Below are positions 1 to 16,961 of a stretch of 64,000 bases of DNA, one piece after another. Source of the DNA: an uncultured Candidatus Saccharibacteria bacterium. Its GTDB lineage: Bacteria > Patescibacteriota > Minisyncoccia > Phycocordibacterales > PALSA-1337. The DNA lies in assembly GCA_964543075.1 (NCBI GenBank), contig CAZIVT010000002.1:3089-67088 (forward strand), given 5' to 3'. Made by a program: the position numbers and the translations under genes. The notes below the pieces were generated by a model, which was not told where the DNA came from, ran no database searches, and saw only the letters and a list, made by a program, of their open reading frames with translations. Every line of letters starts with the position of its first letter. Within the stretch, counting starts at the first letter, position 1.

Positions 1-204
1 GCAAATCACAACAAGTATTTCACTCTCAAAAATAAGTTCGGGAAAGTTGATGAGCAGTTCATACGGCAGAGCGTGAAGAATATGCAAGACTGTACTTGGT
101 ATATTGCTGGTCCGCCAAATATGATCGACGCTGTTCGAAATATTCTTCTTTTGCTCGGCATTAGAGCAGAATCAATCTTATATGAAGGATTTGATGGTTA
201 TTAA
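1..204 (+). CDS. C-terminal fragment of an FAD/NAD(P)-binding ferredoxin-reductase-type oxidoreductase (5' end outside window)
   Basis: Frame 1 is open from base 1 to TAA at 202-204. The tail CTWYIAGPPNMIDAVRNILLLLGIRAESILYEGFDGY resembles the NAD-binding C-terminus (G-P-P-x-M) of FNR-like reductases. Confidence 0.45.
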   Translation, partial: ANHNKYFTLKNKFGKVDEQFIRQSVKNMQDCTWYIAGPPNMIDAVRNILLLLGIRAESILYEGFDGY

Positions 205-213
205 TTTTATTAT

Positions 214-1446
214 ATGAATAAGTATTATAAGAAGACTCACAAGAAAAGGCACTGGCTATGGCTTATCTTTCCTGCTTTGCTTGGAATGGTTTTACTAGCG
301 TCAGGATTATTTACGATTACCAAGGAGATAACATATACCGACGATTCAATCGTTGCTCAATCTGAGAATTCAAAAGCAGAACAAAGAATACAGGAGTATC
401 GAGTGGAATCTGGAGACACGTTCGGAACGATACTTGGATCGTTCGGCGTGACCGGCACGGATGTCGATAGTATACTAGCCGCCTCGCAAGATGTATATGA
501 TTTCACAAAAATAAAGACCGGGCAGTTGCTTAAGGTGATTTTTGTTCAGAATGCATTTGCGGCAATGGAGTATGTTATCACCGATCACCAAGTGGTGACT
601 GTAGAAAAAAGCGGCGAAGACTTTGCGGTTGAAACATCCGATATCAAGTACGACATAACACCCGTAACAGCAGAAGCAAGTATAACTTCGTCACTATTTC
701 TTGATGCCTCGTCCGCCGGACTTGAAGATAAAACCATCATGGAGCTTGCCGAAATTTTTGGATGGGATATTGATTTCGCAACTGATATTCGCGAAGGAGA
801 TTCATTCAGAGTTCTCTACGAGAAACGATCAACTGAAGGTAAACCAGCGAAGTCAGGAAAAATACTCGCGGCTCGATTTGAAAATCAAGGCAAAACATAT
901 TGGGCAGTGGCTTATGAAGACGCTTCTGGAAACGTGAAATATTACGATCAAGACGGAAACTCTCTTGCAAGACAATTCTTAAAATCTCCATTGACCTATA
1001 AGTATATAAGCACTCAATACACGAACAGCCGTATTAATCCTGTTACAAAAACGGTAGACACGCATAAGGCGATTGACTATGCGGCTCCAGCTGGAACCCC
1101 TATTGTCGCTTCTGCTGATGGCGTAGTTGCCTACGCAGACTGGAAAGGTGGTTATGGAATAGATGTCGAGATAAATCACGAAGGGTCATACAGGACTTTG
1201 TATGCCCACCTTTCTCGTATTGCGAAGGGCATCAAAAACGGTGTCGAGGTGAAGCAAGGTCAGGTCATTGGCTATGTAGGGTCGACTGGAATCTCCACTG
1301 GACCGCATTTGCACTTTGCCATGTATAGAAATGGAAGCCCCTTGAATCCCTTGACCGCTGATCTGCCACCAGGAGAGGCAATAGGAAGTGAATCAAAAGC
1401 TGATTTTGACTCCAAAAAGGACAAGCTGATAAGTAAATGGTTTTAA
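214..1446 (+). CDS. LysM-domain M23 family metallopeptidase with N-terminal membrane anchor
   Basis: TM segment WLWLIFPALLGMVLLASGLF, LysM-like YRVESGDTFGTILGSFGV, and M23 signatures HKAIDYAAPAGTPI and GSTGISTGPHLHFAMY. Confidence 0.85.
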   Translation: MNKYYKKTHKKRHWLWLIFPALLGMVLLASGLFTITKEITYTDDSIVAQSENSKAEQRIQEYRVESGDTFGTILGSFGVTGTDVDSILAASQDVYDFTKIKTGQLLKVIFVQNAFAAMEYVITDHQVVTVEKSGEDFAVETSDIKYDITPVTAEASITSSLFLDASSAGLEDKTIMELAEIFGWDIDFATDIREGDSFRVLYEKRSTEGKPAKSGKILAARFENQGKTYWAVAYEDASGNVKYYDQDGNSLARQFLKSPLTYKYISTQYTNSRINPVTKTVDTHKAIDYAAPAGTPIVASADGVVAYADWKGGYGIDVEINHEGSYRTLYAHLSRIAKGIKNGVEVKQGQVIGYVGSTGISTGPHLHFAMYRNGSPLNPLTADLPPGEAIGSESKADFDSKKDKLISKWF

Positions 1447-1488
1447 ACTAGAAGAGTTATCCACAGTCCGATCATTTGACAAATAGGA

Positions 1489-1507
1489 TATAGGGGTATA
1501 CCCTATA
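1489..1507. promoter_or_regulatory. Putative CsoR operator
   Basis: TATAGGGGTATACCCTATA lies 35 bp upstream of the csoR ATG. The core GGGTATACCC is a perfect palindrome, resembling the G/C-tract inverted repeats bound by CsoR-family repressors. Confidence 0.4.
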
Positions 1508-1541
1508 AGCAGGTCGATAACTAATAATCTAATAAAAACAT

Positions 1542-1823
1542 ATGCACCATTCAGTTGATCAAAAAATAAAAGGCCGGGCTTTGCACCGGGCAAAGATTCT
1601 TAAAGGCCAGTTTGACGGTCTTATAAAGGCTATTGAGAAGGAAGAGTACTGCCCCACGCTCTTGGAGCAGTCACTCTCCATTCAAAGGTCGCTCAAAAGC
1701 CTTGACAGTTTTCTCTTGGAAAATCATCTCCGTTCCCATGTGAAGCATCAAATGCAGAGCAAGGGTGAAGATGAGAAAGCAGTCAAAGAATTAATCAGGA
1801 TATACAACTTATCCAATAAATAA
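1542..1823 (+). CDS. csoR: CsoR/RcnR-family metal-sensing transcriptional repressor
   Basis: 93 aa. The pattern LHRAKILKGQFDGLIKAIEKEEYCPTLLEQSLSIQRSL is typical of DUF156/CsoR four-helix repressors, with a Cys in the YC motif. It is the first gene of the copper operon. Confidence 0.85.
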   Translation: MHHSVDQKIKGRALHRAKILKGQFDGLIKAIEKEEYCPTLLEQSLSIQRSLKSLDSFLLENHLRSHVKHQMQSKGEDEKAVKELIRIYNLSNK

Positions 1824-1825
1824 TC

Positions 1826-2029
1826 ATGTCTAGCAACATCACAAAACAACTAAAAAAGGCTGGTATGCACATTGAGTTGGATCAGAAGGCGTTAGATGTT
1901 GTATGTGGTATGGAACTTGATCCTGTTCAAACAAAACTGCATGCCGAGCACAAGGGCGAAGTGTATTACTTCTGTAGTACCAATTGCAAGAATCACTTTA
2001 TTAATGATCCAACAAAGTACGTTGGCTAA
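1826..2029 (+). CDS. YHS/TRASH-domain metal-binding protein
   Basis: VVCGMELDP...GEVYYFCSTNCKNHFINDPTKYV matches the YHS-domain pattern (C-G-M ... Y-Y-F-C-S-x-x-C). It starts 2 nt after the csoR stop. Confidence 0.8.
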   Translation: MSSNITKQLKKAGMHIELDQKALDVVCGMELDPVQTKLHAEHKGEVYYFCSTNCKNHFINDPTKYVG

Positions 2030-2039
2030 AAAACCATTT

Positions 2040-3185
2040 ATGAATAAATTATACTTAACTATCGCTGTAGTGATTATCGTTGGCATTGGATTTGCGCTGT
2101 TTTCCCAATCAAGTCCCGACAAATCTGCCACAGATAATGCAAAAGTAGGCAACACTGTTTCTGGCACCCAGGAAAAAATCTATATAGCTCTCGAAGATGA
2201 AGGAAAGGTTGCGGTTATGGACCCGACGGAAAGAAAGATAATCAAGACAATTGATCTTTCCAAAGAAACCGACGGTAAAGAGGTACATTTTATGGCTCAC
2301 AATGTTCAGGTATCTCCGAACGGCCAATTTGTCGCAGTCACCGCAAATGTTGCGGAAAGCATGGATGGAATGTCTAGCGGCTCAATGGCATCTCCTGATG
2401 ACTCATCTGATGAGCTTGTTATTATCAATCCTACCACTGACCAAATCACACAACGCATCCCCATTGATATAGAAAGTCATCTCGCGCATGTTGTTGTTTC
2501 AAAAGACGGGAAAACAGCATATGTGATTTCACAGGAAAAAAGCCTAGTTTATCTTATCAATCTGGAAAGCGGCAAAATAGCAAAAAAGATCGAGCTCGGA
2601 CAAAACGCTCAACCACACGGTTTACGCCTGTCATCAGACGACTCGAAAGCCTTTATAGCTCTCATTGGCAAAGGGCTGGCAATACTAGATACGGCATCGG
2701 GAAAATTTGAGACTATTCAGTTACCCGGTGCAGGTGTCCAGACAGCAGTAACCCAAGATGGTAAATACGCTTTTGTCTCGGTATACGACACTAAACAAAT
2801 TGGCCTGCTCGATCTCAAGACAAATAAATTAAGTTTTATCAATTTACCGACTGAAGCAAAGGGGCCGGTGCAAATCTATCCGTCGCCTGACTCTAAATAT
2901 CTATATGTGGCGGATCAAGGCTATTACTTCGACCAACCGTCAAGTGACAAAGTCTATCGCATTGATATAGCGAAGAAAGAGGTAGATAAGACTGTGGATG
3001 CCGGCACTGCGCCCCACGGCATCGTTGTTAATGATTCGGGAGAGTTTGCGTTTGTTACTAACTTACTAAGCAATGACATATCAGTCATTGATCTCATGAC
3101 TGATAAGGAAGTTGCAAGAATTCCAGCAGGCAAAATGCCAAATGGCATTAGTATCTGGAACAGCGTCACGGGAGGAACGCGTTAA
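2040..3185 (+). CDS. YVTN/YncE-like beta-propeller repeat protein with signal anchor
   Basis: Start moved to the ATG at 2040 (MNKLYLTIAVVIIVGIGFALF), because the longer ORF overlaps the YHS gene. Repeated propeller blades are present, e.g. PHGLRLSSDDSKAFIA and PHGIVVNDSGEFAFVTNLLSNDISVIDL. Confidence 0.7.
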   Translation: MNKLYLTIAVVIIVGIGFALFSQSSPDKSATDNAKVGNTVSGTQEKIYIALEDEGKVAVMDPTERKIIKTIDLSKETDGKEVHFMAHNVQVSPNGQFVAVTANVAESMDGMSSGSMASPDDSSDELVIINPTTDQITQRIPIDIESHLAHVVVSKDGKTAYVISQEKSLVYLINLESGKIAKKIELGQNAQPHGLRLSSDDSKAFIALIGKGLAILDTASGKFETIQLPGAGVQTAVTQDGKYAFVSVYDTKQIGLLDLKTNKLSFINLPTEAKGPVQIYPSPDSKYLYVADQGYYFDQPSSDKVYRIDIAKKEVDKTVDAGTAPHGIVVNDSGEFAFVTNLLSNDISVIDLMTDKEVARIPAGKMPNGISIWNSVTGGTR

Positions 3186-3210
3186 TTAATCAAACTAACT
3201 AATTCAAAAT

Positions 3211-3435
3211 ATGAAACTATCGAAAATACTACATGTCGCGAGTGTCATCTCAGGAGTTTTGGGAATTCTAGGGATTCTGGGCCTCTTTGGTTTCTGGGGT
3301 GTAGGGATGATGGGAAATAATCAGGGTATGATGCCGATGTCTGTAGGCTCAATCCCGCTCCTCCTAGCCGCAATTTGGTTTCAGATTGGAGCAATTCATC
3401 ACATGATACTTGAGAGAAAGGGAGAAATTGTTTAG
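3211..3435 (+). CDS. Small Met-rich two-TM membrane protein
   Basis: 74 aa, hydrophobic, with MMGNNQGMMPM between the TM segments. It sits inside the copper operon. Confidence 0.4.
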   Translation: MKLSKILHVASVISGVLGILGILGLFGFWGVGMMGNNQGMMPMSVGSIPLLLAAIWFQIGAIHHMILERKGEIV

Positions 3436-3455
3436 TCGCTTAACTAAAAAATTAT

Positions 3456-3684
3456 ATGCATAATCATAATGACAATAATAAAGAAATAAAGACGGTGGTC
3501 ACAAAGGAATGATGTTGATGATGATCCCGTGCTTGCTCCTATTAGGATTTCTGTTTCTTGGTGGGGCAACTTATCTTCTTCTGGGTATCTCTGGCCAATT
3601 CTTATTGGCGTCTTTGTAATTGTGCATGTTTGGATGATGTTCAAGGGTCACGGCGGACACGATCACGGGTCTGATAAGAAATAA
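3456..3684 (+). pseudogene. DUF2933-like small His-rich membrane protein, apparently split across three frames
   Basis: ATG 3456 gives MHNHNDNNKEIKTVVTKE then a stop. Frame 2 (ATG 3509) gives MMLMMIPCLLLLGFLFLGGATYLLLGISGQFLLASL. Frame 1 (GTG 3529 to TAA 3682-3684) ends LWPILIGVFVIVHVWMMFKGHGGHDHGSDKK, the typical DUF2933 C-terminus. Confidence 0.3.
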
Positions 3685-3689
3685 ATACT

Positions 3690-5795
3690 ATGACTCATCA
3701 CGAACACACAAAAGATCTGTACACCTGCCCTATGCATCCAGAGGTGATGCAGGACAATCCTGGTATGTGCCCTGAATGCGGTATGCGGCTGGTGCCTACA
3801 AAGAAAAAGGGATCAGTCGGACACGAGGATCATGATAAACACGCAGGTCATTCGACCAAGATGTTTTTTAGAAAGTTTTGGATAAGCCTCATTTTAACTA
3901 TTCCAGTTGTGCTCTACGCTAAGGTCGTAGAGACTATTTTCAAGTGGTCACCGCCTACTTTTCCCGGTTCGGACTATCTCCCTTTGATCTTAGGATCGAT
4001 CGTCTTTTTCTATGGTGGCTGGGTATTCCTTGCTGGTGCATGGCGTGAAATCAAAGGACGACTGCCGGGCATGATGACCCTGATCGCTATCGCTATTTCT
4101 GCCGCTTACCTCTGGAGTGTGTATGCGGTTTTTGCAGGTGCTGAAGCTCTTTTTTGGGAGCTTACAACGCTTATCACCATTATGCTTCTTGGGCACTGGC
4201 TCGAGATGCGTGCAGTTTCCGGAGCACAAGGTGCGCTTAAGGAGCTTTCAAAGCTCCTTCCTGATACTGCAGAAGTAATCCGTAATAGTGTAACAACAAC
4301 TATTTCGCTTTCCGAGCTTCGAGAGAACGATGTTGTGCTCGTAAAACCCGGAACGAAGATTCCTGCAGACGGCTCGATCATTGATGGCGACTCTGATGTA
4401 AACGAGTCGATGGTTACAGGTGAATCAAAGCCTGTTTCTAAGAAAGAGGGTGATGCAGTCATCGCCGGCACGATAAATGGAGACGGTGCGTTGAAAATTA
4501 AAGTTTCGAATATTGGCGAGAAGACATTTCTTGCCGGTGTTATGCGTTTGGTTGCTGAAGCGCAGGCTTCTAAGTCTCGTTTACAGATTCTTTCCGACCG
4601 AGCCGCTCTTTATCTAACCATAGTCGCAGTCGGCGGAGGTATTATTACACTCGTTGCCTGGCTTCTGGCAGGCGCTGATGTCGGTTTTGCGGTGGCTCGG
4701 CTTGTAGCTGTGCTTGTGATTGCTTGTCCGCACGCGCTTGGTTTGGCAGTCCCACTTGTTGCATCAATCTCTACGACCAAAGCGGCACAGAACGGCTTTT
4801 TGGTAAAACAACGCCTTGCTCTTGAGGCCGCTCGAACTATTGATACGGTGTTATTTGATAAAACAGGAACACTCACCAAGGGAGAATTCGGAGTAGTAGA
4901 AGTTTGGAACACTAGCGGACACACCAGAGACGAGGTCATAGAATTAGCTGCTTCACTTGATGCCCTGTCGGAACATCCGATCGCTCGTGCTGTTGTCGCA
5001 AAAGCAAAAGAACAAAAGTTGTCACTCAAAGATCCTAAGAAATTTGAAGCGATCAAAGGCAAGGGCGTGAAAGCAATGATCGGCGAGCAGGAGATTATGG
5101 TTGGCGGACCGGCACTTCTTGAGGGTCTTGGACTTACCGTCCCCAATGAAATCTCCAATCAGATTCAGGATACTGGCAAAAAAGGACAGACCGTTGTCTT
5201 TACAGTAAAAGATAGAAAGCTCCTCGGTGCCATTGCTCTTGCCGACATCATCCGCGAAGAATCACGAGAAGCCATTAAATCGCTCAAAGAAAGGGGTGTG
5301 AAAACAGCAATGATCACCGGTGACTCCGAAGATGTGGCCAAGTGGGTTGCCTCCGAGCTTGGCATAGATGAATATTTCGCCAGGGTGCTCCCGTCGGAGA
5401 AATCAGAAAAGGTCAAAGCGTTGCAGGATCGTGGCTTGAAGGTCGCAATGGTTGGAGATGGTATTAATGACGCTCCGGCTTTAACACAGGCCGATCTCGG
5501 CATTGCAATAGGTGCCGGCACAAACGTCGCCATTGAGTCGGCCGGTATCATTCTCGTGCGAAACGATCCCAGAGACATCGTGAAGATTGTCCGGTTGTCT
5601 CAAATGACTTACACCAAGATGATTCAGAACCTGTTCTGGGCGACCGGATACAATGTGGTCGCGTTGCCGCTTGCCGCCGGTGCGCTTGCGTTCAAGGGAA
5701 TCATTCTTGACCCGGCAGTTGCCGCCGTTTTTATGTCGGCAAGCACGGTCATTGTTGCCATTAACGCTGTCCTTCTGCGAAGGCGCGAATTATAA
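3690..5795 (+). CDS. copB: Copper-translocating P1B-type ATPase (CPH motif, His-rich N-terminus)
   Basis: DKTGTLT, GDGINDAP and TGES motifs. TM6 carries ACPHALGLAVPL (CPH as in CopB-type pumps). The N-terminus has YTCPMHPEVMQDNPGMCPECGMRLVP plus HEDHDKHAGH. Confidence 0.93.
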   Translation: MTHHEHTKDLYTCPMHPEVMQDNPGMCPECGMRLVPTKKKGSVGHEDHDKHAGHSTKMFFRKFWISLILTIPVVLYAKVVETIFKWSPPTFPGSDYLPLILGSIVFFYGGWVFLAGAWREIKGRLPGMMTLIAIAISAAYLWSVYAVFAGAEALFWELTTLITIMLLGHWLEMRAVSGAQGALKELSKLLPDTAEVIRNSVTTTISLSELRENDVVLVKPGTKIPADGSIIDGDSDVNESMVTGESKPVSKKEGDAVIAGTINGDGALKIKVSNIGEKTFLAGVMRLVAEAQASKSRLQILSDRAALYLTIVAVGGGIITLVAWLLAGADVGFAVARLVAVLVIACPHALGLAVPLVASISTTKAAQNGFLVKQRLALEAARTIDTVLFDKTGTLTKGEFGVVEVWNTSGHTRDEVIELAASLDALSEHPIARAVVAKAKEQKLSLKDPKKFEAIKGKGVKAMIGEQEIMVGGPALLEGLGLTVPNEISNQIQDTGKKGQTVVFTVKDRKLLGAIALADIIREESREAIKSLKERGVKTAMITGDSEDVAKWVASELGIDEYFARVLPSEKSEKVKALQDRGLKVAMVGDGINDAPALTQADLGIAIGAGTNVAIESAGIILVRNDPRDIVKIVRLSQMTYTKMIQNLFWATGYNVVALPLAAGALAFKGIILDPAVAAVFMSASTVIVAINAVLLRRREL

Positions 5796-5814
5796 TTAAC
5801 CGACCAATAAATAT

Positions 5815-7419
5815 ATGAAAAATAAACTAATCATTGGAATCATCGTGGTCGTTGTCATCATTGGAGGGGTTGCCCTTTTACAGCGATCTAACACTGGCAA
5901 TATAGTGATGGCCGGCAGTTTTTCTACCGACATCACCGGTCTTGCTGAAGCCAAGCAGAGCGAGACGGTCGAACTTAAGAACGGCGATACGTACGATCTC
6001 ACCGCTTCAATCGTAAAGAAAACGATCGGCAACAGCGTGGTCAAAATGCTTGCCTATAACGGCATGATACCGGGACCCATGATCAAGGTGCAACAGGGTG
6101 CGGAAGTTACTTTGAATTTCACCAATAACACCGATGTCGATACCACGATCCATTCTCACGGTGTTCGGCTGGAGAATAAGTTTGATGGCGTACCAGACGT
6201 AACCCAGAAAGAAGTGAAGCCAGGTGAATCATTTACTTACAAAATCAAATTCCCTGACGAGGGTATGTATTGGTATCACCCTCACATTCGGGAGGACTAT
6301 GCACAAGAACTTGGTCTCTATGGAAATTATCTAGTAGTTCCAAATGATCCGAACTACTGGTCTCCAGTCAATCGTGAAGTCGCACTCTTTGTCGACGACA
6401 TTCTTATCGAGAACGGCAAGATTGCAGTATTCAGCAAAGAGTCAGCTGACCGCACCCTCATGGGCAGGTTCGGGAACACCATGCTCGTAAATGGAGAGAC
6501 CAACTATTCACTTCAAGCAAAAGCCGGAGAAGTTATTCGCTTCTACATCACCAATTCAGCAAATACCAGAACGTTTAACATATCTATCCCCGGTGCAAAA
6601 ATGAAACTAGTAGGAGCTGATGGCGGCAAATACGAACGCGAAACGTGGAGCGACAGCATACTCTTGAGTCCGTCTGAACGCGCTATTGTTGAGGTATTGT
6701 TTGCCGATGCCGGATCATACAAGATTGAGCATAAGACTCCAGAGCGTACTTATACTCTTGGAACAATTACAGTCTCTCCAGAAAAAGTAGCTACTTCATA
6801 CAGTAAAGAATTTGGCGTACTGCGTTCAAATAAAGATATTCAATCGGAGATTGATGCATTCAGATCATCATTCAATAAACCGGCCGATAAACGTCTGAAG
6901 CTCACGATTGATATGGGAATGCAAATGCAGGGCATGATGCAAAGTAACACCGGCGGACATAACATGAACATGATGGGTAATGACCAGATGATGTCCAACA
7001 ATGAAATGGTGTCAAGCGGCGATCCTATCGAGTGGGAAGAAAACAATGCGGCGATGAATACGATGTCGAATCCGGAAATGATGAAGTGGGTTATAGAAGA
7101 CGAAGATACCGGCAAGAAGAACATGGACATTGACTGGAATTTCAAAGTCGGCGACAAGGTAAAAATCAAAATTACCAACGATCCGAACTCCATGCATCCG
7201 ATGCAACACCCAATCCACTTCCACGGCCAGCGATTCTTAGTCTTGAGTACGAACGGTAAGTCGAATGATAACCTCGTCTGGAAAGATACTACGCTTATCC
7301 AAAATGGGGACACCGTTGAGATTATCGTTGAAATGACGAACCCAGGCGAATGGATGGCGCATTGTCACATTGCGGAGCATTTGGAGGCGAGCATGATGTT
7401 TGGGTTTAAGGTAGAGTAA
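5815..7419 (+). CDS. Multicopper oxidase with methionine-rich insert
   Basis: Copper ligand motifs HSHG, WYHPH, HPMQHPIHFHG and HCHIAEHLEASMM. Met-rich segment MGMQMQGMMQSNTGGHNMNMMGNDQMMSNNEM, as in CueO/PcoA-type oxidases. Confidence 0.9.
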   Translation: MKNKLIIGIIVVVVIIGGVALLQRSNTGNIVMAGSFSTDITGLAEAKQSETVELKNGDTYDLTASIVKKTIGNSVVKMLAYNGMIPGPMIKVQQGAEVTLNFTNNTDVDTTIHSHGVRLENKFDGVPDVTQKEVKPGESFTYKIKFPDEGMYWYHPHIREDYAQELGLYGNYLVVPNDPNYWSPVNREVALFVDDILIENGKIAVFSKESADRTLMGRFGNTMLVNGETNYSLQAKAGEVIRFYITNSANTRTFNISIPGAKMKLVGADGGKYERETWSDSILLSPSERAIVEVLFADAGSYKIEHKTPERTYTLGTITVSPEKVATSYSKEFGVLRSNKDIQSEIDAFRSSFNKPADKRLKLTIDMGMQMQGMMQSNTGGHNMNMMGNDQMMSNNEMVSSGDPIEWEENNAAMNTMSNPEMMKWVIEDEDTGKKNMDIDWNFKVGDKVKIKITNDPNSMHPMQHPIHFHGQRFLVLSTNGKSNDNLVWKDTTLIQNGDTVEIIVEMTNPGEWMAHCHIAEHLEASMMFGFKVE

Positions 7420-7448
7420 AAGCTCGCCATACAGGCAAACAAACAAGA

Positions 7449-7475
7449 AGGGGCTTGAAGCCTCTTTTTGTTTGT
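7449..7475 (+). terminator. Rho-independent terminator after the copper operon
   Basis: Stem AGGGGC/GCCTCT (one G-U pair), loop TTGAA, followed by TTTTGTTTGTTT. Confidence 0.5.
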
Positions 7476-7491
7476 TTCAATGAGCCACTAT

Positions 7492-7887
7492 TCAACAAAG
7501 ACATGCTATGCAGATACAAAGTGCATAAGAGCATGAAGGGATGGGGGTCAGAAAGAGAATGGGTAATTTGCCGAACTTCGGCTTTTTCTCTTTGATGTAT
7601 CTTTCGGCAGGCTTGATTGTGATCTCAATTTTTGTCCGTATTTCTATCTCAAGAAGTTTCTGACAGCTGGGACAGCGCATCGTGAATGACGCATTTGAGT
7701 TGAATGCTCCGTTCTTGAAGACAATATTCGTGCAATGAGGGCAATTGCCGATATTTAATGGTTCTTGATCCATATTCGCTGGAGGGTTTGCTGGTGCCGG
7801 CGTTGATTCCGGAGCTTCAGAAACCTTTGACATGGAATTAATTAATAATCGTTCCCGACCGGGGTCGACTACTTCCCGGTCAATCAA
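7492..7887 (-). CDS. Hypothetical zinc-ribbon protein
   Basis: Contains CPHC...CPSC (NCPHCTNIVF ... RCPSCQKLL). No recognisable family and the start is uncertain. Confidence 0.4.
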   Translation of the reverse strand: MIDREVVDPGRERLLINSMSKVSEAPESTPAPANPPANMDQEPLNIGNCPHCTNIVFKNGAFNSNASFTMRCPSCQKLLEIEIRTKIEITIKPAERYIKEKKPKFGKLPILFLTPIPSCSYALCICIACLC

Positions 7888-7894
7888 CGGGCAA

Positions 7895-8428
7895 TTAAGT
7901 GTCGTCTATTGCCTTCCTTTTTGCGCCATTCATCGACATCTTGGCGACCAGCACATCTCTCATCTCCGCTAAGTTATCCCCAGTTTTTTGATCACGTGCG
8001 TAATTCTTTTTAATAAATTCTTTTTCTTTATTCTTGTTAGTAGTTCCTGCTGACTGATCTGACCGGTCTGTATGACCGATGTGCAAGTCTGATTGACCGA
8101 TCTTGTTTGAGTTCGGTCTGTATGACCGGTCTAGTTTCAACAGGTAGTACACATTGTGGTAGCGTCGCCGGCTCTTTCGGATGATCTCAAGCTTGATAAG
8201 TTGCCGGATACCTCTTTGCACGCTCGAGATGCTTGCACCGATCTTATCGGCAATGGTCTGGTGGGACGGAAAACAAAAACCCTCCTGGTTGGCGTGCTCT
8301 GCCAGGCAGTTATAAATAGCGATGCCGATTGGACCTATCGTGCTTCCGTATTCATCGAGAAGCACCTTGCTGATCCAGTACCAGTCACCTTTGCGAAGAT
8401 CTCTGATTGTTATTTTTTCATCCGGCAT
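7895..8428 (-). CDS. Winged-helix DNA-binding protein, phage/plasmid replication-initiator-like
   Basis: Start moved to MPDEKITIRDL. The segment FCFPSHQTIADKIGASISSVQRGIRQLIKLEIIRK is a typical HTH of DnaD/replication-O-like helper proteins. Confidence 0.55.
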   Translation of the reverse strand: MPDEKITIRDLRKGDWYWISKVLLDEYGSTIGPIGIAIYNCLAEHANQEGFCFPSHQTIADKIGASISSVQRGIRQLIKLEIIRKSRRRYHNVYYLLKLDRSYRPNSNKIGQSDLHIGHTDRSDQSAGTTNKNKEKEFIKKNYARDQKTGDNLAEMRDVLVAKMSMNGAKRKAIDDT

Positions 8429-8632
8429 ACACGAGAAATAAGGGCGTGGTGAGGGTTGACCAAAACCCAGACCGCACCTTATCGCTCCTCTCAATGAGGT
8501 GGCAGACCATTGAGGGGAGAGTAAGAGGCGGTCTACCATTCCTTAGATTTTGGTAGAGCCCGATCGATGTTATCCATCGCCCGGCAGAAATCTCTTCGTG
8601 TAATTGGATTTTCAAGTTCCCGGATGTTGAAG

Positions 8633-8911
8633 TTACGCAAGAGACTCTCCCGTCTCCAAAGAAGTTCCTTCCTTGTCGGTGGCTTCCGAGTCATCCGTGT
8701 CCATATCCTCCGGATAAGTCTCTTGATCAGGATTTTCGTTCTCATGTTTTTTGATGTGATCCATGTGATCCAAAAGCATGAACGCCATACGCTTAAAGCC
8801 AGCGTGGACTTTCCAAACTTCTTGTCGGGACGGCTCTCGGCCGAGTACGTCGGCGAGTGCGTTGCGAGTGAGCTCAACGAGAGCTTCCTCATCTTTATCT
8901 GGTTTGGACAT
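8633..8911 (-). CDS. Hypothetical acidic protein
   Basis: 92-aa ORF with a plausible composition. The overlapping 131-aa ORF in another frame is Arg/Ser-rich and less protein-like. Confidence 0.4.
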   Translation of the reverse strand: MSKPDKDEEALVELTRNALADVLGREPSRQEVWKVHAGFKRMAFMLLDHMDHIKKHENENPDQETYPEDMDTDDSEATDKEGTSLETGESLA

Positions 8912-8964
8912 GCGGTGGTTTGGTTCATAGAAGTGACCTCACACTTTTATTGACCCCACCTTGC

Positions 8965-9171
8965 CTAAGGCAAGAAAACTTCCTCTACTCTGACCCCGAG
9001 AGCCAAAGCGATCCGCTGGGCTGTTTCGAGATTCGGCCGTTTCCGGCCGGTCTCGTACCTGCTGATCGCAGTGTTGTGCTTAAAACCAAGAATTCGGGCT
9101 AGTTGATATTGCGTTAGCCCTTTCTTGATTCGAAGGTCACGGAGTTTTATATTCACTGGTGATTTGTTCAT
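8965..9171 (-). CDS. XRE-family HTH regulator (Cro-like)
   Basis: LRIKKGLTQYQLARILGFKHNTAISRYETGRKRPNLETAQRIALALGV is a canonical XRE HTH. It is divergent from the CI-like gene. Confidence 0.85.
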   Translation of the reverse strand: MNKSPVNIKLRDLRIKKGLTQYQLARILGFKHNTAISRYETGRKRPNLETAQRIALALGVRVEEVFLP

Positions 9172-9201
9172 AGGTTTAACTTTTAGACCTCTATAGTCAT
9201 A

Positions 9202-9219
9202 TTAAGCAAAATTGCTTAA
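9202..9219. promoter_or_regulatory. Operator palindrome O1
   Basis: TTAAGCAAAATTGCTTAA is a perfect 18-bp palindrome in the cro/cI divergent intergenic region. Confidence 0.6.
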
Positions 9220-9243
9220 CTCGTCAATATATCAGGGTGTGGA

Positions 9244-9259
9244 TAAGCAAAGTTGCTTA
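9244..9259. promoter_or_regulatory. Operator palindrome O2
   Basis: TAAGCAAAGTTGCTTA has the same half-sites (TAAGCAA-N2-TTGCTTA) as O1 and lies 42 bp away. Confidence 0.6.
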
Positions 9260-9296
9260 ATCTTTACAATTTTGCTACGATGTACTAAACTGGTCG

Positions 9297-9316
9297 TAAG
9301 CAAGGAAATTAAGCAA
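9297..9316. promoter_or_regulatory. Two direct operator half-sites
   Basis: TAAGCAAGGAAATTAAGCAA contains two TAAGCAA half-sites in direct orientation, just upstream of the CI-like ATG at 9328. Confidence 0.4.
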
Positions 9317-9327
9317 ATTCAACAAAT

Positions 9328-10047
9328 ATGTCATTTGGTTCATATCTAAAAAATCAAAGAGAATCGAAAAGTTGGACTATAAAAGAGCTGGCCGAACGGC
9401 TCGGCTTTTCCTCGAGCTACATCAGCCAGTTGGAGAATGGGACACGCAATCCATCCCATAAACAGCTGGCCGTTCTCGCCAAGGCCTATCAGCTTCCTGA
9501 AGAGGAACTGAAGAAGCATTGGACCGAGGGGAAGATCCAAAAGGTCAGCATGGAGGGCAATTATAAATTCAACATCAGCGATGTTGGCGAGAAGCGTGTT
9601 CACGAGGCCGCAAGCAAATTAGAGCAAGGGCTTGAGGAACTACGGAATACCATCTCTGGCGATGATGCATACATCAAGACGCCAGTGATTGATGCACTCT
9701 CAGCCGATGACCTCGGCACTCGTTTGAAGGAAGCGAAGGAGTTTTTCTTTCTCCCTAAAAACAGCGTGCCGGCCGGACATCGTATGTTTGGCTTTCGGGT
9801 GGATGGTTTATCACTACCCGATGCCGGCATTCTCACCGGGGACTTCACCATCCTCGATGCAGATGCTGATCCAAAGAGTGGCGATATTGTGGTGGTCGCC
9901 ACTCCGGATGGACTGGTGATGACTTATTACCATGAGCGAGGTGACTACCTTGAGCTCAGGCCGGAGACGGAGGGCTTCAAAAAGACCTACCATCTCAAGG
10001 AGAGCAAGATAGTGGGTCGGCTCGTCTACCACGTCAAGAAGTATTAA
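9328..10047 (+). CDS. CI-like repressor: XRE HTH fused to an S24/LexA-like C-terminal domain
   Basis: N-terminal HTH WTIKELAERLGFSSSYISQLENGTRNPS. The C-terminus VDGLSLPDAGILTGDFTILDADADPKSGDIVVV...LELRPE...IVGRLVY resembles the LexA/CI autopeptidase fold. The catalytic dyad was not verified. Confidence 0.8.
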   Translation: MSFGSYLKNQRESKSWTIKELAERLGFSSSYISQLENGTRNPSHKQLAVLAKAYQLPEEELKKHWTEGKIQKVSMEGNYKFNISDVGEKRVHEAASKLEQGLEELRNTISGDDAYIKTPVIDALSADDLGTRLKEAKEFFFLPKNSVPAGHRMFGFRVDGLSLPDAGILTGDFTILDADADPKSGDIVVVATPDGLVMTYYHERGDYLELRPETEGFKKTYHLKESKIVGRLVYHVKKY

Positions 10048-10133
10048 AGAACAGGGCTCTCCGCAAGGTGAGCCCTGAAGCTATTTATAGGAGGTTGATT
10101 ATAAAAAATAAGTAAAGAATTTATCAATTAATT

Positions 10134-11717
10134 ATGAACTACTTAATCTACGGCCGTGTCTCTACATCTCGTCAGGCCGAACGAGAATTGAGTATTCCAG
10201 CGCAGGTGAAAGCATGCCAGAAGTACGGCATGGATCACGGTTGGAATCTCGCACCTGATGGCATCTATGAGGAAAAGGGTGAATCAGCTCGAACAGTTGA
10301 ACGTCCACAGCTTCAGAAAATGCTTCATCGGGCAAAGACTGATAACAAGGTCGATGCGATATTGATGCACAAACTTGATCGTATGTGTCGCAACGTTGCG
10401 GACTACGCCGCAATAAAGATGATGCTCAAAAAGCACGACGTCCGGTTGATCTCGGTGGTCGAGCAATTCGATGAGTCTTTCTCCGGAGAGCTTGTCGAGA
10501 ACATCATGTCCTCAATTGCTCAATGGACGTCCCAGAACATCAGCTGGGAGGTCAGGAAAGGCCTTAAAGAGGCCGTAGAGCGTGGCAGGTTCCCCGGATA
10601 CGCTCCAATCGGCTATATGAACGATCGGAAGACCAAATCCCTGATCGTGGATACTGTTCGAGCACCATATGTGAAGCTGGGGTTTGAGCTTTACGCGACA
10701 GGCAAATTTTCTTACTACACGCTCGGTGACGAATTGGCAAAACGAGGTCTCAAGAGCAAGGCTGGCAAACGTGTCTCAAAGAAAGGCGTTGAGCGGATGC
10801 TTCAAAATTCGATCTACTACGGTCTTATAAAAACACGATCGGCCACCAATCAGGCAAACTTTCCGTCACTCATTACCAAGAAGCTCTTTGATGATGTGCA
10901 GGAAATCATCGCACAGCACAATCACTACGCCGATCGGTCTCGCAAGCACACCTTTCCGCTTACCGGCTTCATGCGATGCGGTTACTGTGGCTCGATGTTG
11001 AGTGGTCAGGTGAAAAAGGGTCACTTGTACTATAACTGCTCTCACCGACGTGACGCCAAATGTCCGGAAAGAAAGTACACTCGATCTGAGCTTATTGAGG
11101 AGCAGGTCGTAGCGTATCTCTCACGAGTCGAGTTGCCACCTAAGTTCAAGACGGTCTTGGATGCGTACTTCCAGCACTTCGCAAAAGAGCGTATGGATCA
11201 GGAGGAAAACGAACGCAAGAGCATTAAGCACGACCTGATCAGGGTGCAACAGCAGATCCGTAATATTGTCGTGGATCGCTCAAAACGCATCATTGACGCA
11301 GAGGTTTTTATAAAGATTCAGGACGAGCTTCTCAAGGAGAAAGAGATGTATCAGGATCGCTTGGCCGAGCTCGAGGGTAAGTCAGACAAATTCGTGCAGA
11401 AATTCAATGAGCTTCTCGACTTCACGGATCACGCCGATGAGGTGTATCAAAAGAGTGGCACTAGTCAGAAGCGAACGGTACTAAAGCTTTGCATTGAGGG
11501 ATTCACAGTCAGAAATCAAAAACTGACACCGATATGGACGCCAGTTTTTGATGTTCTTATGGACTTACAATGGTCCAAGTTCGATCCCCCAAAAGTCGGC
11601 GGCAAGGGTTCTAAAACCGCCTCAAAAACCCTTGCCGTACCTAAGGTTCTAACTTGGACATCTGGCGGAGACGGAGGGATTCGAACCCTCGAGGCCCTTG
11701 CGAGCCTAACACCTTAG
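10134..11717 (+). CDS. Large serine recombinase (integrase)
   Basis: Resolvase N-domain LIYGRVSTSRQ with the catalytic Ser, a recombinase domain, the zinc ribbon CGYCGSML...YYNCSHRRDAKCPE and a coiled-coil. The last 56 nt of the ORF overlap tRNA-Ser on the other strand, so the true C-terminus is uncertain. Confidence 0.9.
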   Translation: MNYLIYGRVSTSRQAERELSIPAQVKACQKYGMDHGWNLAPDGIYEEKGESARTVERPQLQKMLHRAKTDNKVDAILMHKLDRMCRNVADYAAIKMMLKKHDVRLISVVEQFDESFSGELVENIMSSIAQWTSQNISWEVRKGLKEAVERGRFPGYAPIGYMNDRKTKSLIVDTVRAPYVKLGFELYATGKFSYYTLGDELAKRGLKSKAGKRVSKKGVERMLQNSIYYGLIKTRSATNQANFPSLITKKLFDDVQEIIAQHNHYADRSRKHTFPLTGFMRCGYCGSMLSGQVKKGHLYYNCSHRRDAKCPERKYTRSELIEEQVVAYLSRVELPPKFKTVLDAYFQHFAKERMDQEENERKSIKHDLIRVQQQIRNIVVDRSKRIIDAEVFIKIQDELLKEKEMYQDRLAELEGKSDKFVQKFNELLDFTDHADEVYQKSGTSQKRTVLKLCIEGFTVRNQKLTPIWTPVFDVLMDLQWSKFDPPKVGGKGSKTASKTLAVPKVLTWTSGGDGGIRTLEALASLTP

Positions 11718-11752
11718 CACGGTGCCGCTTTCGACCACTCAGCCACGTCTCC
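11662..11752 (-). tRNA. tRNA-Ser (GCT anticodon), CCA encoded
   Basis: Manual fold of the reverse complement: acceptor GGAGACG/CGTCTCC, anticodon arm GCACC-GTGCTAA-GGTGT, long variable arm, T arm GAGGG-TTCGAAT-CCCTC, then GCCA. Confidence 0.9.
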
Positions 11753-11992
11753 ATGTAATATTTTCTTAAAGGCAGTGCCACCTTTGTAGCTTTTGACCTT
11801 CTTCTCGAGCATACGAGCCTCTTGTTCAGTGTCGGTCTCACAGTAGCATACCAGTTTCCAAGGACCATTCAACTTGGTAAAAGCACCGCCGGTGCCGCTG
11901 TTGTGCGAGACCAGTCTCTCACTCATGTTTATGGTAGAGCCGACATAATGTTTCCCATTCTTTAGGCTCTTGAGTATATAAACATACGCCAT
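11714..11992 (-). CDS. GIY-YIG nuclease family protein (YhbQ/COG2827-like)
   Basis: MAYVYILKSLKNGKHYVGSTINMSERLVSHNSG...PWKLVCYCETDTEQEARMLEKKVKSYKG is a canonical GIY-YIG pattern. The ORF has no stop of its own, and its last 13 codons are tRNA-Ser sequence with the TAA in the anticodon loop. Confidence 0.8.
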   Translation of the reverse strand: MAYVYILKSLKNGKHYVGSTINMSERLVSHNSGTGGAFTKLNGPWKLVCYCETDTEQEARMLEKKVKSYKGGTAFKKILHGDVAEWSKAAPC

Positions 11993-12061
11993 TCACTTTC
12001 GACCATCCCGCCTTTGGCGGGATAAACTCAGCCACGACCCGCCTTGGCGGGTCACGTCTCC
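11993..12061 (-). pseudogene. Decayed copy of the tRNA-Ser 5' portion (nt 1-26) interrupted by two mini-hairpin insertions
   Basis: The reverse complement reads GGAGACG[TGACCCGCCAAGGCGGGTCG]TGGCTGAG[TTTATCCCGCCAAAGGCGGGA]TGGTCGAAAG. With the brackets removed it equals the first 25-26 nt of the intact tRNA-Ser. Confidence 0.65.
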
Positions 12062-12144
12062 ATCGGTGCGCCGAAGCTCGAAAAGCGTAGGCGACCAGTC
12101 GCCAAGCCATTCTTGCACAAAAGAGGGGAGTAATCAAAGTCATC

Positions 12145-12180
12145 GAAAACAAAAGGCCGTCCACTGAGAGAATGGACGGC
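12145..12180 (-). terminator. Rho-independent terminator of the 12201..12548 gene
   Basis: Stem GCCGTCCA/TGGACGGC (8 bp perfect), followed on the minus strand by CTTTTGTTTTC. Confidence 0.6.
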
Positions 12181-12200
12181 TTGATGAGAGATATGAGAGC

Positions 12201-12548
12201 TTATCGTACTGTCGCTATACCAGTCTGTTCATCCGTGCGAACGTGTTGTTCGGCGAGCTTCCGCGCGACAGCGTCCTCGATCTGTTCTCGAGTCAGATCT
12301 AGGTCGGATCCGGTCCCGGTGACATTAGTCGGACGGACGGTCCAAAGCGTCCCTTTGCCCGGTTCTCTACATCGTCCGATGACGATGAACCGGATGGGAA
12401 TACCTTGCTCTACTTCCCAGAGAAAGTCCTTGCCGATCAGGCTTGGCGGTGAAGCTCTTCTTGACCGCGCGGCTGCCTGACGGATATCGCTGAAGGTGAC
12501 GGTTCTTTTGTTCATTCCATTGCTCGTTTCGGTATAAGATTGTTGCAT
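12201..12548 (-). CDS. Hypothetical protein
   Basis: 115-aa ORF (alternative start MNKRTV at 12515) with a downstream terminator. The opposite-strand ORF 12172..12480 is Ser/Arg/Cys-rich and looks spurious. Confidence 0.5.
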   Translation of the reverse strand: MQQSYTETSNGMNKRTVTFSDIRQAAARSRRASPPSLIGKDFLWEVEQGIPIRFIVIGRCREPGKGTLWTVRPTNVTGTGSDLDLTREQIEDAVARKLAEQHVRTDEQTGIATVR

Positions 12549-12677
12549 AGTCCGAGAGAGATGGTATTGAAATATCTATTCATTGTCAAATCAGCCAAAG
12601 ATGGGCGACAGCTGTGAATTACTCGTCTTGTCGAGATGTCCTGTGTAACCTAGAATATCTCATGAAAGGACCTTGCC

Positions 12678-12899
12678 ATGAACGAACAACCAATGCCGCC
12701 AGTCTCTCATCGGGAAGATATGGCCTCTATGGTCGGGGAAATCCTCGATCCGTTCAATGTATGGGTTACTGGCATCGCGGTCGGACATTCTCCGACGCAC
12801 AACGAGTGCGCACAGCACTATATGACACACGGCGGCCTGGAGCGTTTCAGGCAGCTACATCCGACATTCATCGTCGATCCATTGCCGGTCGCCGCATGA
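12678..12899 (+). CDS. Hypothetical small protein
   Basis: 73-aa ORF preceded by TAGAAT and an AAGGA-like motif, and followed directly by a strong terminator. Confidence 0.45.
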   Translation: MNEQPMPPVSHREDMASMVGEILDPFNVWVTGIAVGHSPTHNECAQHYMTHGGLERFRQLHPTFIVDPLPVAA

Positions 12900-12911
12900 A
12901 AGCGCATCACA

Positions 12912-12936
12912 GGCGGACCCACCGGTCCGCCTTTTG
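12912..12936 (+). terminator. Rho-independent terminator
   Basis: GGCGGACC-CACC-GGTCCGCC followed by TTTT. Confidence 0.65.
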
Positions 12937-12955
12937 TCATGGTATACTGTGTCGC

Positions 12956-13579
12956 ATGCTTGCGGCCTTTGTGACCGGCGTCATCATCGCGTTCCTCACC
13001 TCGATACCGGTCGGGCCGGTCGGCCTCCTCTGCATATCGCGATCGATCTCCCACGGCAAGTATTCCGGGATGGTGGTCGGCCTCGGTGCCGCCGTGGTCG
13101 ACGCCTTCTTCGCCGCTGTAGCGGCTTTCAGCCTGACAGGCATCGTCCATTTCATCAAGGACTACTCCATCGCGTTCCATATCGTCAGCTTCTGCGCGCT
13201 CATCGGTGTCGCTATCTACTTCCTCCGAGCCAAGACCCATGTCGCGCACGAGCATCGCCGCGAGGTGTCGCACAGCGAGAATTTCTTCGTCTCCGCTTTC
13301 CTCAATATCACCAACCCATTCGCCATCTTCGGTTTCTTCACGCTCTTCGCACTAGCTGGCTTGGGTCGAGGCATCGGCCACGGGGAAGCGATCGCCGCGG
13401 TCGGAGGAGTCTTCGTCGGGGCGTGTCTCTGGTGGTATCTCCTAGCGGCTGTCTCCGACCGTTTCGAGTCCAAAGTCGACGATCGCATGATGACCGCGCT
13501 CAACCGCGCCTTCGGCATCCTGATCATCGCCTTCGTCGTTTTCCTCGCGTTCAAGTTCGTGCTGTCGCTTTTGCACTAG
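12956..13579 (+). CDS. LysE/RhtB-family amino-acid exporter
   Basis: Start moved to MLAAFVTGVIIAFLTSIPVGPVGLLCI (typical LysE N-terminus). About six TM segments. TATACT sits 7 nt upstream of the ATG. Confidence 0.8.
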   Translation: MLAAFVTGVIIAFLTSIPVGPVGLLCISRSISHGKYSGMVVGLGAAVVDAFFAAVAAFSLTGIVHFIKDYSIAFHIVSFCALIGVAIYFLRAKTHVAHEHRREVSHSENFFVSAFLNITNPFAIFGFFTLFALAGLGRGIGHGEAIAAVGGVFVGACLWWYLLAAVSDRFESKVDDRMMTALNRAFGILIIAFVVFLAFKFVLSLLH

Positions 13580-13635
13580 GCCGATGGCACACGACCTATT
13601 TTGAAATAGGGCATACATACGCTACTATTAGAGCC

Positions 13636-15618: not shown

Positions 15619-15639
15619 GAGTTCGGCATACTATGATAC

Positions 15640-15770: not shown

Positions 15771-15783
15771 TATACTATATCCT

Positions 15784-16881: not shown

Positions 16882-16961
16882 CGAGTAGTCAGTCCTTCGT
16901 TATACACACCTCACACTGGCTCTACTCTGGTATAATCATATAGAAACCATCTTACGGAGAT

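Follow-up and report, generated by a model that had tools for sequence, protein, structure and literature searches.

Near the left edge of a 64,000-nt stretch of DNA from an uncultured Candidatus Saccharibacteria bacterium (contig CAZIVT010000002.1; the whole stretch is called the window here), a large serine recombinase gene runs into the end of an oppositely oriented tRNA-Ser(GCT) gene. The locus raises the question of what kind of element ends at this tRNA and how it came to be integrated there. We are confident that window positions 1..11662 represent the right-hand arm, on the integrase side, of a tailed temperate phage in the chromosome of a member of the candidate phyla radiation (CPR, Patescibacteria), and the junction is probably that of a serine-integrase attP with a short common core at the tRNA 3' tip. 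On balance, we also lean slightly towards a broader proposal: that a clade of large serine recombinases in a widespread family of CPR phages uses as attB the near-universal 3' tip of tRNA-Ser and tRNA-Asp (T-loop, acceptor strand, G73 and CCA); that one integrase and attP serve at least five tRNA genes across hosts; that integration writes the CCA and a structured trailer and swaps the integrase C-terminus; and that a covarying half-site-like copy, P'', hints at a regulatory or architectural element new to serine-integrase systems. Related loci and contigs are designated by L numbers. The features at and around the junction are as follows.

1..11662: integrase-proximal prophage arm; its left end lies outside the window, with at least 13 kb more in L002, L001 and L140-L142
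10134..11717, plus strand: large serine recombinase, 527 aa (Resolvase 1.6e-30, residues 5-152; Recombinase PF07508 4e-12; Zn_ribbon_recom PF13408 3e-11)
11572..11587: P'', a third half-site-like copy, GGTCCAAGTTCGATCC, inverted with respect to P' and ~50 nt inside it; outer stem around the hairpin
11601..11636: hairpin with a 10-bp stem, GGCAAGGGTT...AACCCTTGCC, element-borne and present in most relatives in varying form
11645..11662: P' arm of attL, GGTTCTAACTTGGACATC as read on the plus strand; inverted repeat of the P arm at a related prophage's attR
11663..11668: common core TGGCGG (complement CCGCCA), comprising the last acceptor-stem bases, the discriminator G73 and CCA
11663..11752, minus strand: host tRNA-Ser(GCT), called by ARAGORN; its body is the B arm of attL

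The block differs from its surroundings in composition. GC content is 45.6% in 1..11662 and 54.5% in 11753..64000 (0.455±0.029 vs 0.545±0.029 in 1-kb windows, Mann-Whitney p=4e-7); the highest 1-kb value left of 12 kb is 0.493, and values to the right are mostly >0.50. The three 4-kb blocks left of 12 kb have tetranucleotide correlations with the host part of -0.02, 0.27 and 0.38, and every 4-kb block to the right has 0.81-0.95. Neither of two host repeat families (a 38-bp perfect palindrome and a CCCGCC...GGCGGG hairpin) occurs in 1..11662. The compositional break coincides exactly with the 3' end of tRNA-Ser(GCT). In three relatives (L029, L008 and L010), tRNA-Ser(GCT) is at the same place upstream of the tyrosyl-tRNA synthetase (TyrRS) gene. 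In each of them a DoxX-family gene comes right after this tRNA, without any island, which shows the block to be an insertion. The closest relatives of the TyrRS (60-80% identity) all come from metagenome-assembled genomes (MAGs) of CPR/Patescibacteria. An earlier note on this DNA had described the sequence left of ~11.66 kb as AT-richer, had read it as a horizontally acquired integrative element ending at tRNA-Ser, and had suggested comparing related genomes for an empty site. The computed break and the three empty sites bear out this description, and neither of the contrary outcomes that the note had named, a lack of any break or the same gene order without mobility genes in relatives, was found.

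The integrase was found next to tRNA genes in many other hosts. We identified 107 relatives in JGI metagenomes (67-99% identity), of which 80 were fetched and 60 loci were scanned for tRNAs. In 49 of these 60, the integrase 3' end overlaps a complete, oppositely oriented tRNA, the targets being Ser-GCT (17), Ser-GGA (13), Ser-TGA (7), Ser-CGA (5) and Asp-GTC (7). For the remaining 11, the tRNA is cut by the contig end (2), the locus ends at TGGCGG (4), the target is damaged (3) or the sequence stops before the junction (2). Every informative locus, i.e., each of the 58 that reach P', reads P'-TGGCGG. Integrases 98-99% identical to that of the window are found at GCT (window, L047), GGA (L045, L048) and CGA (L046), and one that is 93% identical is found at tRNA-Asp (L059). 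Among the tabulated loci, P' is identical wherever the integrase is 91-99% identical, whatever the tRNA, with one substitution in L050 and L058. The tRNA bodies (variable arm, T stem and acceptor stem), on the other hand, vary by locus and match their own 5' halves, and the conserved element DNA begins right after ...CCGCCA with GATGTCCAAGTTAGAACC... (50-locus table). The junction, as read from these alignments, is at the tRNA 3' tip. We also considered that the 3' half of the tRNA (variable and T arms) might be phage-derived, which is ruled out by the variation of the whole tRNA body with the host in the same table. Several of the related loci come from Hainich groundwater assemblies.

The recombination sites can be read from occupied and empty loci. 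In the tRNA sense, attB is ...GGGTTCGAATCCCACCGTCTCCGCC|AATATGGTACAATC... in L029, and attL in the window is ...CCGTCTCCGCCA|GATGTCCAAGTTAGAACC. Five DoxX contigs from samples other than that of the window (L131-L135) were fetched in search of its attR, and two of them, L134 and L135, contain the attR of a related phage; in L134, at the same host site, it reads ...GGTTCAAAGTTGCGGAAATCGCCACCGCC|AATATGGTACAATC..., with a 957-aa protein, an amidase and a 72-aa gene upstream. For a related prophage in IMG/VR, both junctions are available (attL in L042/L053, attR in L138) and give attP as GGTTCTAACTTCGGGACATC-GCCACCGCCA-GATGTCCAAGTTAGAACC. This attP is an imperfect inverted repeat of ~48 bp whose arms, GGTTCTAACTT(CG)GGACATC, are inverted apart from a 2-nt indel, around a core of CCGCC(A). 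The inner repeats GGACATC/GATGTCC flank a 10-nt spacer, the centre of which is the first CC of CCGCCA. The attR of L136, ...CCACCGC|AATTT, confines the exchange to CCGC, and the L134 attR compared with the L029 attB shows the same pattern. Such a layout, with a common core of 4-7 bp, is standard for serine integrases and agrees with the 5-8 bp cores of Int-S prophages (PMC8092301). The B' arm is not conserved, and the 25-nt tRNA fragment in L050 indicates that little is needed beyond the T-loop half and the acceptor strand. The attP of the window phage is predicted to be GGACATCGCCACCGCCAGATGTCC, and its far junction is predicted to read ...GGTTCTAACTTCGGGACATCGCCACCGCC followed by the DoxX promoter. 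The earlier note had proposed a search upstream for a repeat of the tRNA-Ser 3' end. No such repeat, which is not expected for a serine integrase, and no inverted copy of P' is present in the window, L001, L002 or L043, and the attR sites of relatives carry only CCACCGCC.

In the mechanism that we propose, the integrase would recombine an attP that imitates the tRNA 3' end, arranged as an imperfect inverted repeat around the 10-nt spacer, with an attB in which the B arm is the T-arm and acceptor 3' strand of the tRNA and the B' arm is the unconserved downstream flank. Exchange would take place at a dinucleotide within the shared CCGC, probably at the first CC, the symmetry centre. No tRNA segment would be duplicated: the body would stay host-derived, and the phage would provide G73-CCA and a strongly folded trailer. 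The sole strict requirement of the target appears to be GGTTCRAATCC...CCGC(CA), and because this requirement is so small, four tRNA-Ser isoacceptor genes and tRNA-Asp are occupied, in different hosts, by integrases at least 93% identical to that of the window.

The integrase itself has the sequence and att-site properties of a large serine recombinase but stands far apart from the characterised enzymes of this family. It matches the PHROG_95 integrase family at 9e-99 over residues 1-469 and carries the N-terminal motif YGRVSTSRQ (residues 6-14). No integrase encoded in 50,697 deposited phage genomes shares more than 29% identity with it; its catalytic domain, which is the only part to match solved structures, matches TP901-1 integrase in the PDB at 1e-14. 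Throughout the family, attP is located within the reading frame of the integrase, a position that accounts for the overlap between the open reading frame (ORF) and the tRNA. The overlap that the earlier note had reported is present, with a length of 55 nt rather than 56 nt, and the complement of the host tRNA supplies the last 18 integrase codons (11663-11716). Because tblastn matches reach residues 518-527 in most relatives, the frame is open through P' into the tRNA complement. With attP inside the frame, integration would swap the last ~18 residues of the integrase. For the IMG/VR prophage, the integrase has 538 aa in the integrated form and 553 aa in the excised form (joined in silico), with tails that diverge after ...LTWTSGG (integrated ...SGGDGGIRTLEALASLTP vs excised ...SGGGDVPKLEP...). 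The conserved integrase domains end near residue 469, before the swapped tail.

P' and P'' covary over 20 family members, with four compensated pairs (for example, U-A in 10 members and G-C in 7). This covariation could reflect an RNA stem, either within the trailer of the tRNA or in the 3'-terminal part of the integrase mRNA, or, as an equally possible reading of the same alignment, co-evolution of three half-sites bound by the integrase.

Integration also leaves its mark on the tRNA. Among the six other tRNA genes in the window, five lack CCA and tRNA-Thr(GGT) ends in it; the empty-site tRNAs of L008 and L010 also lack CCA, and every occupied site reads CCGCCA. The encoded CCA is therefore donated by the phage. 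The hairpin, which the earlier note had correctly located, is the inner part of a larger structure formed by the 101 nt that follow the tRNA (-42.1 kcal/mol, z=-4.6); none of 200 shuffles folds as stably. The phage thus appears to donate a strongly folding trailer of ~100 nt to tRNA-Ser. As a candidate canonical intrinsic terminator, the hairpin was rejected: the consensus scan made no call and the T-run is 6 nt from the stem. We therefore refer to it as a structured trailer only.

Terminase, portal, capsid, tail and lysis genes are all absent from 1..11662 among Pfam and PHROG matches, because the element continues to the left of position 1. Contigs L002-L005 (100% identical to the window) and L001 (a variant with 89-97% identity) extend the block leftwards through low-GC genes. 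On a single contig, L001 carries RadC, DsbA, the copper genes described below, CI and the integrase, and its left end enters a RadC/JAB gene that is 81% identical to a gene of a provirus in IMG/VR. Contigs from SRR13355620-22, the samples in which the exact sequence of the window is present, encode the RadC protein P0111. To one side of it are Fic, a sigma-like gene, a methyltransferase (MTase), ParB, TerS and the start of TerL, and to the other a 144-aa gene and DsbA. These same-sample TerL-TerS-ParB-MTase-Fic-RadC-144aa-DsbA contigs, in which the ORFs are intact, have 85% nucleotide identity to the IMG/VR provirus and 92% to L001, and the TerL/TerS side starts ~10.7 kb left of window position 1. 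The IMG/VR provirus, with an integrase 94% identical to that of the window, has the same core module, different cargo (PHP/SMC-like ATPase, PD-(D/E)XK nuclease, tyrosine recombinase and methyltransferases) and a full phage backbone in the order ParB, TerS, TerL, portal, major head protein, tail fibre or spike, and amidase. Its attR, at L138 10930-10958, is ~37.9 kb from the tRNA junction, which sets the prophage length at ~37.9 kb; by analogy, the window phage would be ~38-40 kb long. The earlier note was right that no virion genes are visible within the window, and this probably does not hold for the element, with TerS and TerL outside it on same-sample contigs. Its view of the block as a prophage remnant or virion-less island is hard to reconcile with that terminase and with a near relative that looks complete at 37.9 kb; a missing virion module may only mean that an element is cut by the window edge.

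Three other explanations were weighed. If the low-GC block were native host DNA, either a compositional fluctuation or an ancient fixed region with no recent insertion, the further mild GC dips in the window at 23-25 kb, 38-39 kb and 59-61 kb would be in its favor. However, tetranucleotide correlations of at most 0.38 in the block and at least 0.81 everywhere else, the empty site in three relatives and the presence of the same module beside different tRNA genes in other hosts leave this explanation with practically no credibility. It is also highly improbable that a tyrosine integrase was responsible for the tRNA association, duplicating the 3' part of the tRNA, and that the serine recombinase is a resolvase or invertase that lies at the end of the element by chance. 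Targeting of tRNAs is indeed typical of tyrosine integrases (PMC8092301, PMC13626063), and the relative L042 has a tyrosine recombinase in its cargo (6158-6979). Nevertheless, none of the 18 annotated ORFs in 1..15.6 kb matches Phage_integrase PF00589, no repeat of the tRNA 3' end is found in the window or in 20 kb of a relative, and the serine recombinase, which has the full integrase architecture, abuts the tRNA end at 58 of 58 loci; a 4-7 bp core between inverted-repeat arms is in itself a serine-integrase signature.

The explanation preferred in the earlier note, i.e., a non-viral integrative element (a genomic island or an integrative and mobilizable element) or a decayed prophage remnant, has more to recommend it but is still unlikely. 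It would account for the absence of virion genes from 1..11662 and for a cargo that is large and of host-beneficial appearance; one assembly gap between the cargo and the phage backbone is unclosed in the exact strain, and damaged tRNA junctions in three relatives suggest that some copies are old. Against this, same-sample contigs with intact ORFs join RadC-144aa-DsbA to Fic, a methyltransferase, ParB, TerS and TerL; L001 has RadC, DsbA, the copper genes, CI and the integrase on one contig; the same core module is found in a relative that forms a full prophage of 37.9 kb; and near-identical integrases at five tRNA genes argue for recent mobility. Relaxase, coupling protein and type IV secretion genes are absent from the Pfam and PHROG matches of the window, L001, L042, L043 and L125.

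The reading that we retain, a temperate phage inserted by its own serine integrase at the tRNA tip, has to accommodate several observations that weigh against it. All of the attR examples come from relatives (L134, L136 and L138), and the window's own attR was not recovered. The crossover dinucleotide, probably the first CC of CCGCCA, is placed by symmetry and shared sequence. The GGTTC motif is separated from the core by 24 nt in the P arm and by 19 nt in the B arm (T-loop), in line with the ZD motif, which is shifted 5 bp toward the centre in attB of serine integrases (PMC3783163); with respect to P', however, the shift is only 3 bp (22 vs 19 nt), so the 5-bp shift is consistent with the model but does not prove it. 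No intact attP of a free or circular phage was found in IMG/VR with the predicted 16-mer ATCGCCACCGCCAGAT: its exact matches number 67, approximately the chance expectation, and none of them has P or P' context. No recombination directionality factor (RDF) was identified, and two core ORFs (7492-7887 and 8633-8911) match no Pfam or PHROG family. In L050, L054 and L082, only a tRNA fragment or a damaged tRNA adjoins P', and thus integration or later events were not always harmless. As to the phage as a whole, L141/L142 and L002 have yet to be joined, since they do not overlap and both end at an inverted repeat; this prophage copy, the left part of which is outside the window, is thus only presumed to be complete and possibly inducible. 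Lastly, the proposed copper resistance is based on domain content only.

The core module of ~4.2 kb that adjoins the tRNA runs from a terminator through a small ORF, the HTH_36 gene, the 92-aa ORF, Cro, the operators and CI-S24 to the integrase.

7437..7477: terminator-like inverted repeat with 20-bp arms, 90% complementary, at the boundary between cargo and lysogeny module
7492..7887, minus strand: conserved core ORF of 93-131 aa, no family match, in the block conserved family-wide
7895..8539, minus strand: winged-helix (HTH_36) replication-initiator-like protein (Pfam HTH_36 2e-10)
8633..8911, minus strand: acidic core protein of 92 aa, conserved in the phage family
8965..9171, minus strand: Cro-like HTH_3 protein (Pfam HTH_3 5e-17)
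9202-9219 and 9243-9260: two predicted palindromic operators, TTAAGCAA-NN-TTGCTTAA, read from the sequence
9328..10047, plus strand: CI-like repressor (HTH_3/HTH_31 2e-14 and Peptidase_S24, a LexA-like autopeptidase, 4e-9)

A block of ~60 bp at the terminator-like repeat is conserved at the cargo/core boundary in 14-19 other loci. The HTH_36 protein matches PHROG families of replication initiation, O-like and DnaD-like proteins (1e-13), and the 92-aa protein is a possible candidate for an RDF or an early gene. The predicted operators overlap divergent promoter-like sites at 9227-9199 (minus strand) and 9263-9291 (plus strand), and further operator half-sites are found at 9297-9316, between cro and cI. 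The CI-S24/Cro pair and its palindromic operators would presumably set the choice between lysogeny and induction. The divergent Cro/CI pair, the winged-helix replication-like gene and the copper genes, all of which had been named in the earlier note, are present according to Pfam and PHROG.

To the left of the core module is the cargo.

214..1446, plus strand: M23 peptidase, Csd3-like, with a weak LysM match (Peptidase_M23 2e-33, Csd3_N2 3e-20)
1542..1823, plus strand: CsoR-type metal-sensing repressor (Pfam Trns_repr_metal 4e-15)
1826..2029, plus strand: small metal-binding protein with a YHS domain (Pfam YHS 9e-12)
2040..3185, plus strand: secreted beta-propeller, YncE/cytochrome-D1-like, start codon uncertain (Cytochrom_D1, DUF5074, Lactonase, YNCE)
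3211..3435, plus strand: membrane protein of 74 aa, no family match
3690..5795, plus strand: P1B-type heavy-metal (copper) ATPase with N-terminal HMBD (E1-E2_ATPase 4e-52, Hydrolase 2e-39, HMBD 6e-10)
5815..7419, plus strand: three-domain multicopper oxidase (Cu-oxidase_3, Cu-oxidase, Cu-oxidase_2)

The CsoR/CopA/multicopper-oxidase set is complete and all domain matches are above the Pfam cut-offs. Judging from this gene content, the copper genes are probably lysogenic-conversion genes under the control of their own CsoR, in keeping with the earlier note's picture of metal resistance delivered to a small-genome host, here a CPR bacterium. In most relatives, homology to the window is lost at ~7.4-7.9 kb, and because the content beyond this point varies among loci, the copper genes sit in a moron-type slot between RadC and the lysogeny module. 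Farther left, outside the window, the cargo continues with low-GC genes for a ferric-reductase-like pair, DUF7282, PAP2 and DsbA. In the variant L001, window positions 2030-3205 are missing, and hence the beta-propeller gene. The copper ATPase, oxidase and M23 peptidase recur in the cargo of L048, L123 and L116: homologues of the P1B ATPase are found in L048 and L116, an 80% nucleotide-level homologue of the multicopper oxidase in L048 and L123, and homologues of the M23 peptidase, which has no relatives in IMG/VR, in L045, L048, L095 and L123. Other relatives carry a CDF transporter (L067), methyltransferases (L043), a restriction endonuclease with an AAA_13/SMC-like ATPase (L057) or a PHP/SMC-like set (L042). 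Phage cargo for metal resistance and envelope redox functions in organisms with minimal genomes is a route by which such hosts may acquire accessory physiology.

The system can be compared with several known ones. As in P4, P22, mv4 and Islander-type islands, a tRNA 3' end is used, the displaced part is restored and the integrase gene adjoins the tRNA. Those tyrosine systems differ in enzyme family and chemistry, share tens of base pairs rather than 4-7, and mark the far end with a tRNA fragment repeat that has no counterpart here. In SSV-type archaeal viruses (Sulfolobus spindle-shaped viruses), attP is part of the gene for the integrase, a tyrosine recombinase, and insertion into a tRNA gene divides that gene into two large pieces. 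The window system resembles them in having attP in the integrase frame, a product altered by integration and a tRNA target, but here only the last ~18 codons would be exchanged, with the catalytic and DNA-binding domains left intact. The regulatory region resembles the lambdoid switch in its divergent HTH genes, an S24 repressor facing a Cro-like HTH protein with repeated palindromes between them, but there is no sequence relationship beyond the domains, and the operators are predictions. With the large serine integrases of phages (phiC31, Bxb1, TP901-1, A118/LI and SPbeta), the system shares the Resolvase, Recombinase and zinc-ribbon architecture, the position of the gene at the prophage end, an inverted-repeat attP of ~48 bp, a very short core, the absence of target duplication and an outer motif closer to the centre in attB than in attP (PMC3783163). 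Unlike those integrases, its natural attB is a tRNA 3' tip, with at least five tRNA genes used by one integrase lineage, and it has attP inside the integrase ORF and the extra half-site-like P''.

Characterised serine integrases, unlike that of the window, typically disrupt ORFs (PMC8092301, PMC13626063): Int-S prophages have 5-8 bp cores at sites within ORFs (PMC8092301), and S-int proviruses prefer coding sequences, with tyrosine integrases dominating RNA-gene targets (PMC13626063; PMC8092301). These surveys agree with the remark in the earlier note that serine integrases beside tRNA genes are uncommon. No description of a serine-integrase lineage targeting tRNA 3' ends was found in the literature searched, the coverage of which is incomplete, so that this is absence of evidence only, and the text of a large survey of large serine recombinases does not mention tRNA (PMC10083194). 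Serine integrases are the main tools for large DNA insertion, and in nature most of them act on unique sequences within ORFs. A lineage that reads tRNA 3' ends and tolerates five tRNA bodies would, if true, be unusual among them, and a tRNA-tip integrase is a candidate for landing-pad-free integration in many bacteria. CPR/Patescibacteria account for a large share of bacterial diversity, and their temperate phages are known mostly as survey counts. A Hainich groundwater survey, for example, reports proviruses in 106 of 519 Patescibacteria MAGs, hosts similar in kind to that of the window phage and in part from environments shared with the related loci; the searched passages of that paper contain no description of integration mechanism, att sites or cargo (PMC12960796). 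The present locus is a worked example of a CPR temperate phage: its ends are mapped, its cargo slot is defined, and it has a lysogeny switch and many relatives.

Some additional observations concern related loci. IMGVR_UViG_3300025154_002045 is listed as 55.9 kb, with attR at ~37.9 kb (L138 beyond position 10958); its last ~18 kb are probably host DNA or another element, the database boundary being over-extended. In L049 (6831-6979), where the integrase is 99% identical, the cargo region includes phage-borne tRNA-Phe and tRNA-Arg(TCT) genes. At the damaged targets, L054 (~11530-11590) has a tRNA-Ser(GGA) that lacks 27 nt of the variable and T arms, L082 (~2671-2690) has only 11 nt of tRNA end beside the prophage, and in L050 (10995-11242) the 25-nt fragment is 130 nt from an intact gene; these may be secondary sites or the result of later deletions. 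Upstream of the DoxX promoter, L131 and L132/L133 have neither the tRNA nor the P arm of the window phage, L132 reading ...CCCTCACCTCCACTA|AAATATGC, and another element may occupy the same site. A divergent 'tRNA-Ser' with the unusual anticodon ACT, predicted by ARAGORN, adjoins tRNA-Ser(GCT) in L008 (7554-7639), L029 (9876-9962), L047 (2732-2821) and L068 (11736-11823); ARAGORN calls none in the window. In L029 (3485-3495), 80 nt beyond tRNA-Ile, there is a second T-loop-like sequence, GGTTCGAATCC, at which no tRNA is called; another integrative element may have left it behind as a tRNA fragment.

The host part of the window contains at least four copies of the perfect 38-bp palindrome ACGCAGGGTAGACCTGCGTACGCAGGTCTACCCTGCGT (23285-23322, ~24045-24082, 24819-24856 and ~27527-27564), which fall in the 23-28 kb region of lower GC and tetranucleotide match. 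Because the palindrome is also found in a related MAG (L009, 15999-16040), we regard it as a host repeat similar to repetitive extragenic palindromes or miniature inverted-repeat transposable elements. The small GC hairpins CCCGCC-TTGG/AAGG-GGCGGG, at 12007, 12038, 29413, 29441, 31831 and 34757, are likewise confined to host DNA.

Immediately upstream of tRNA-Ser(GCT) is an ORF for a 92-aa GIY-YIG nuclease (11714-12065, minus strand; Pfam 5e-16), the last 13 codons of which come from the first ~39 nt of the tRNA, the stretch from the 5' acceptor strand to the anticodon stem. A second, decayed copy of the first ~25 nt of the tRNA (GGAGACGTG[hairpin]GTGGCTGAG[hairpin]TGGTCGAAAG) lies upstream of this ORF, broken by the insertion of two small CCCGCC..GGCGGG hairpins. 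The cassette is absent from the empty-site relatives and looks like an insertion into the D-arm region that brought or duplicated the 5' part of the tRNA. In a different host, a second GIY-YIG homologue (42% identity; L080 2340-2624, minus strand) lies directly upstream of tRNA-Ser(GGA) at 2174-2263, suggesting a recurrent association of GIY-YIG genes with tRNA-Ser in CPR genomes.

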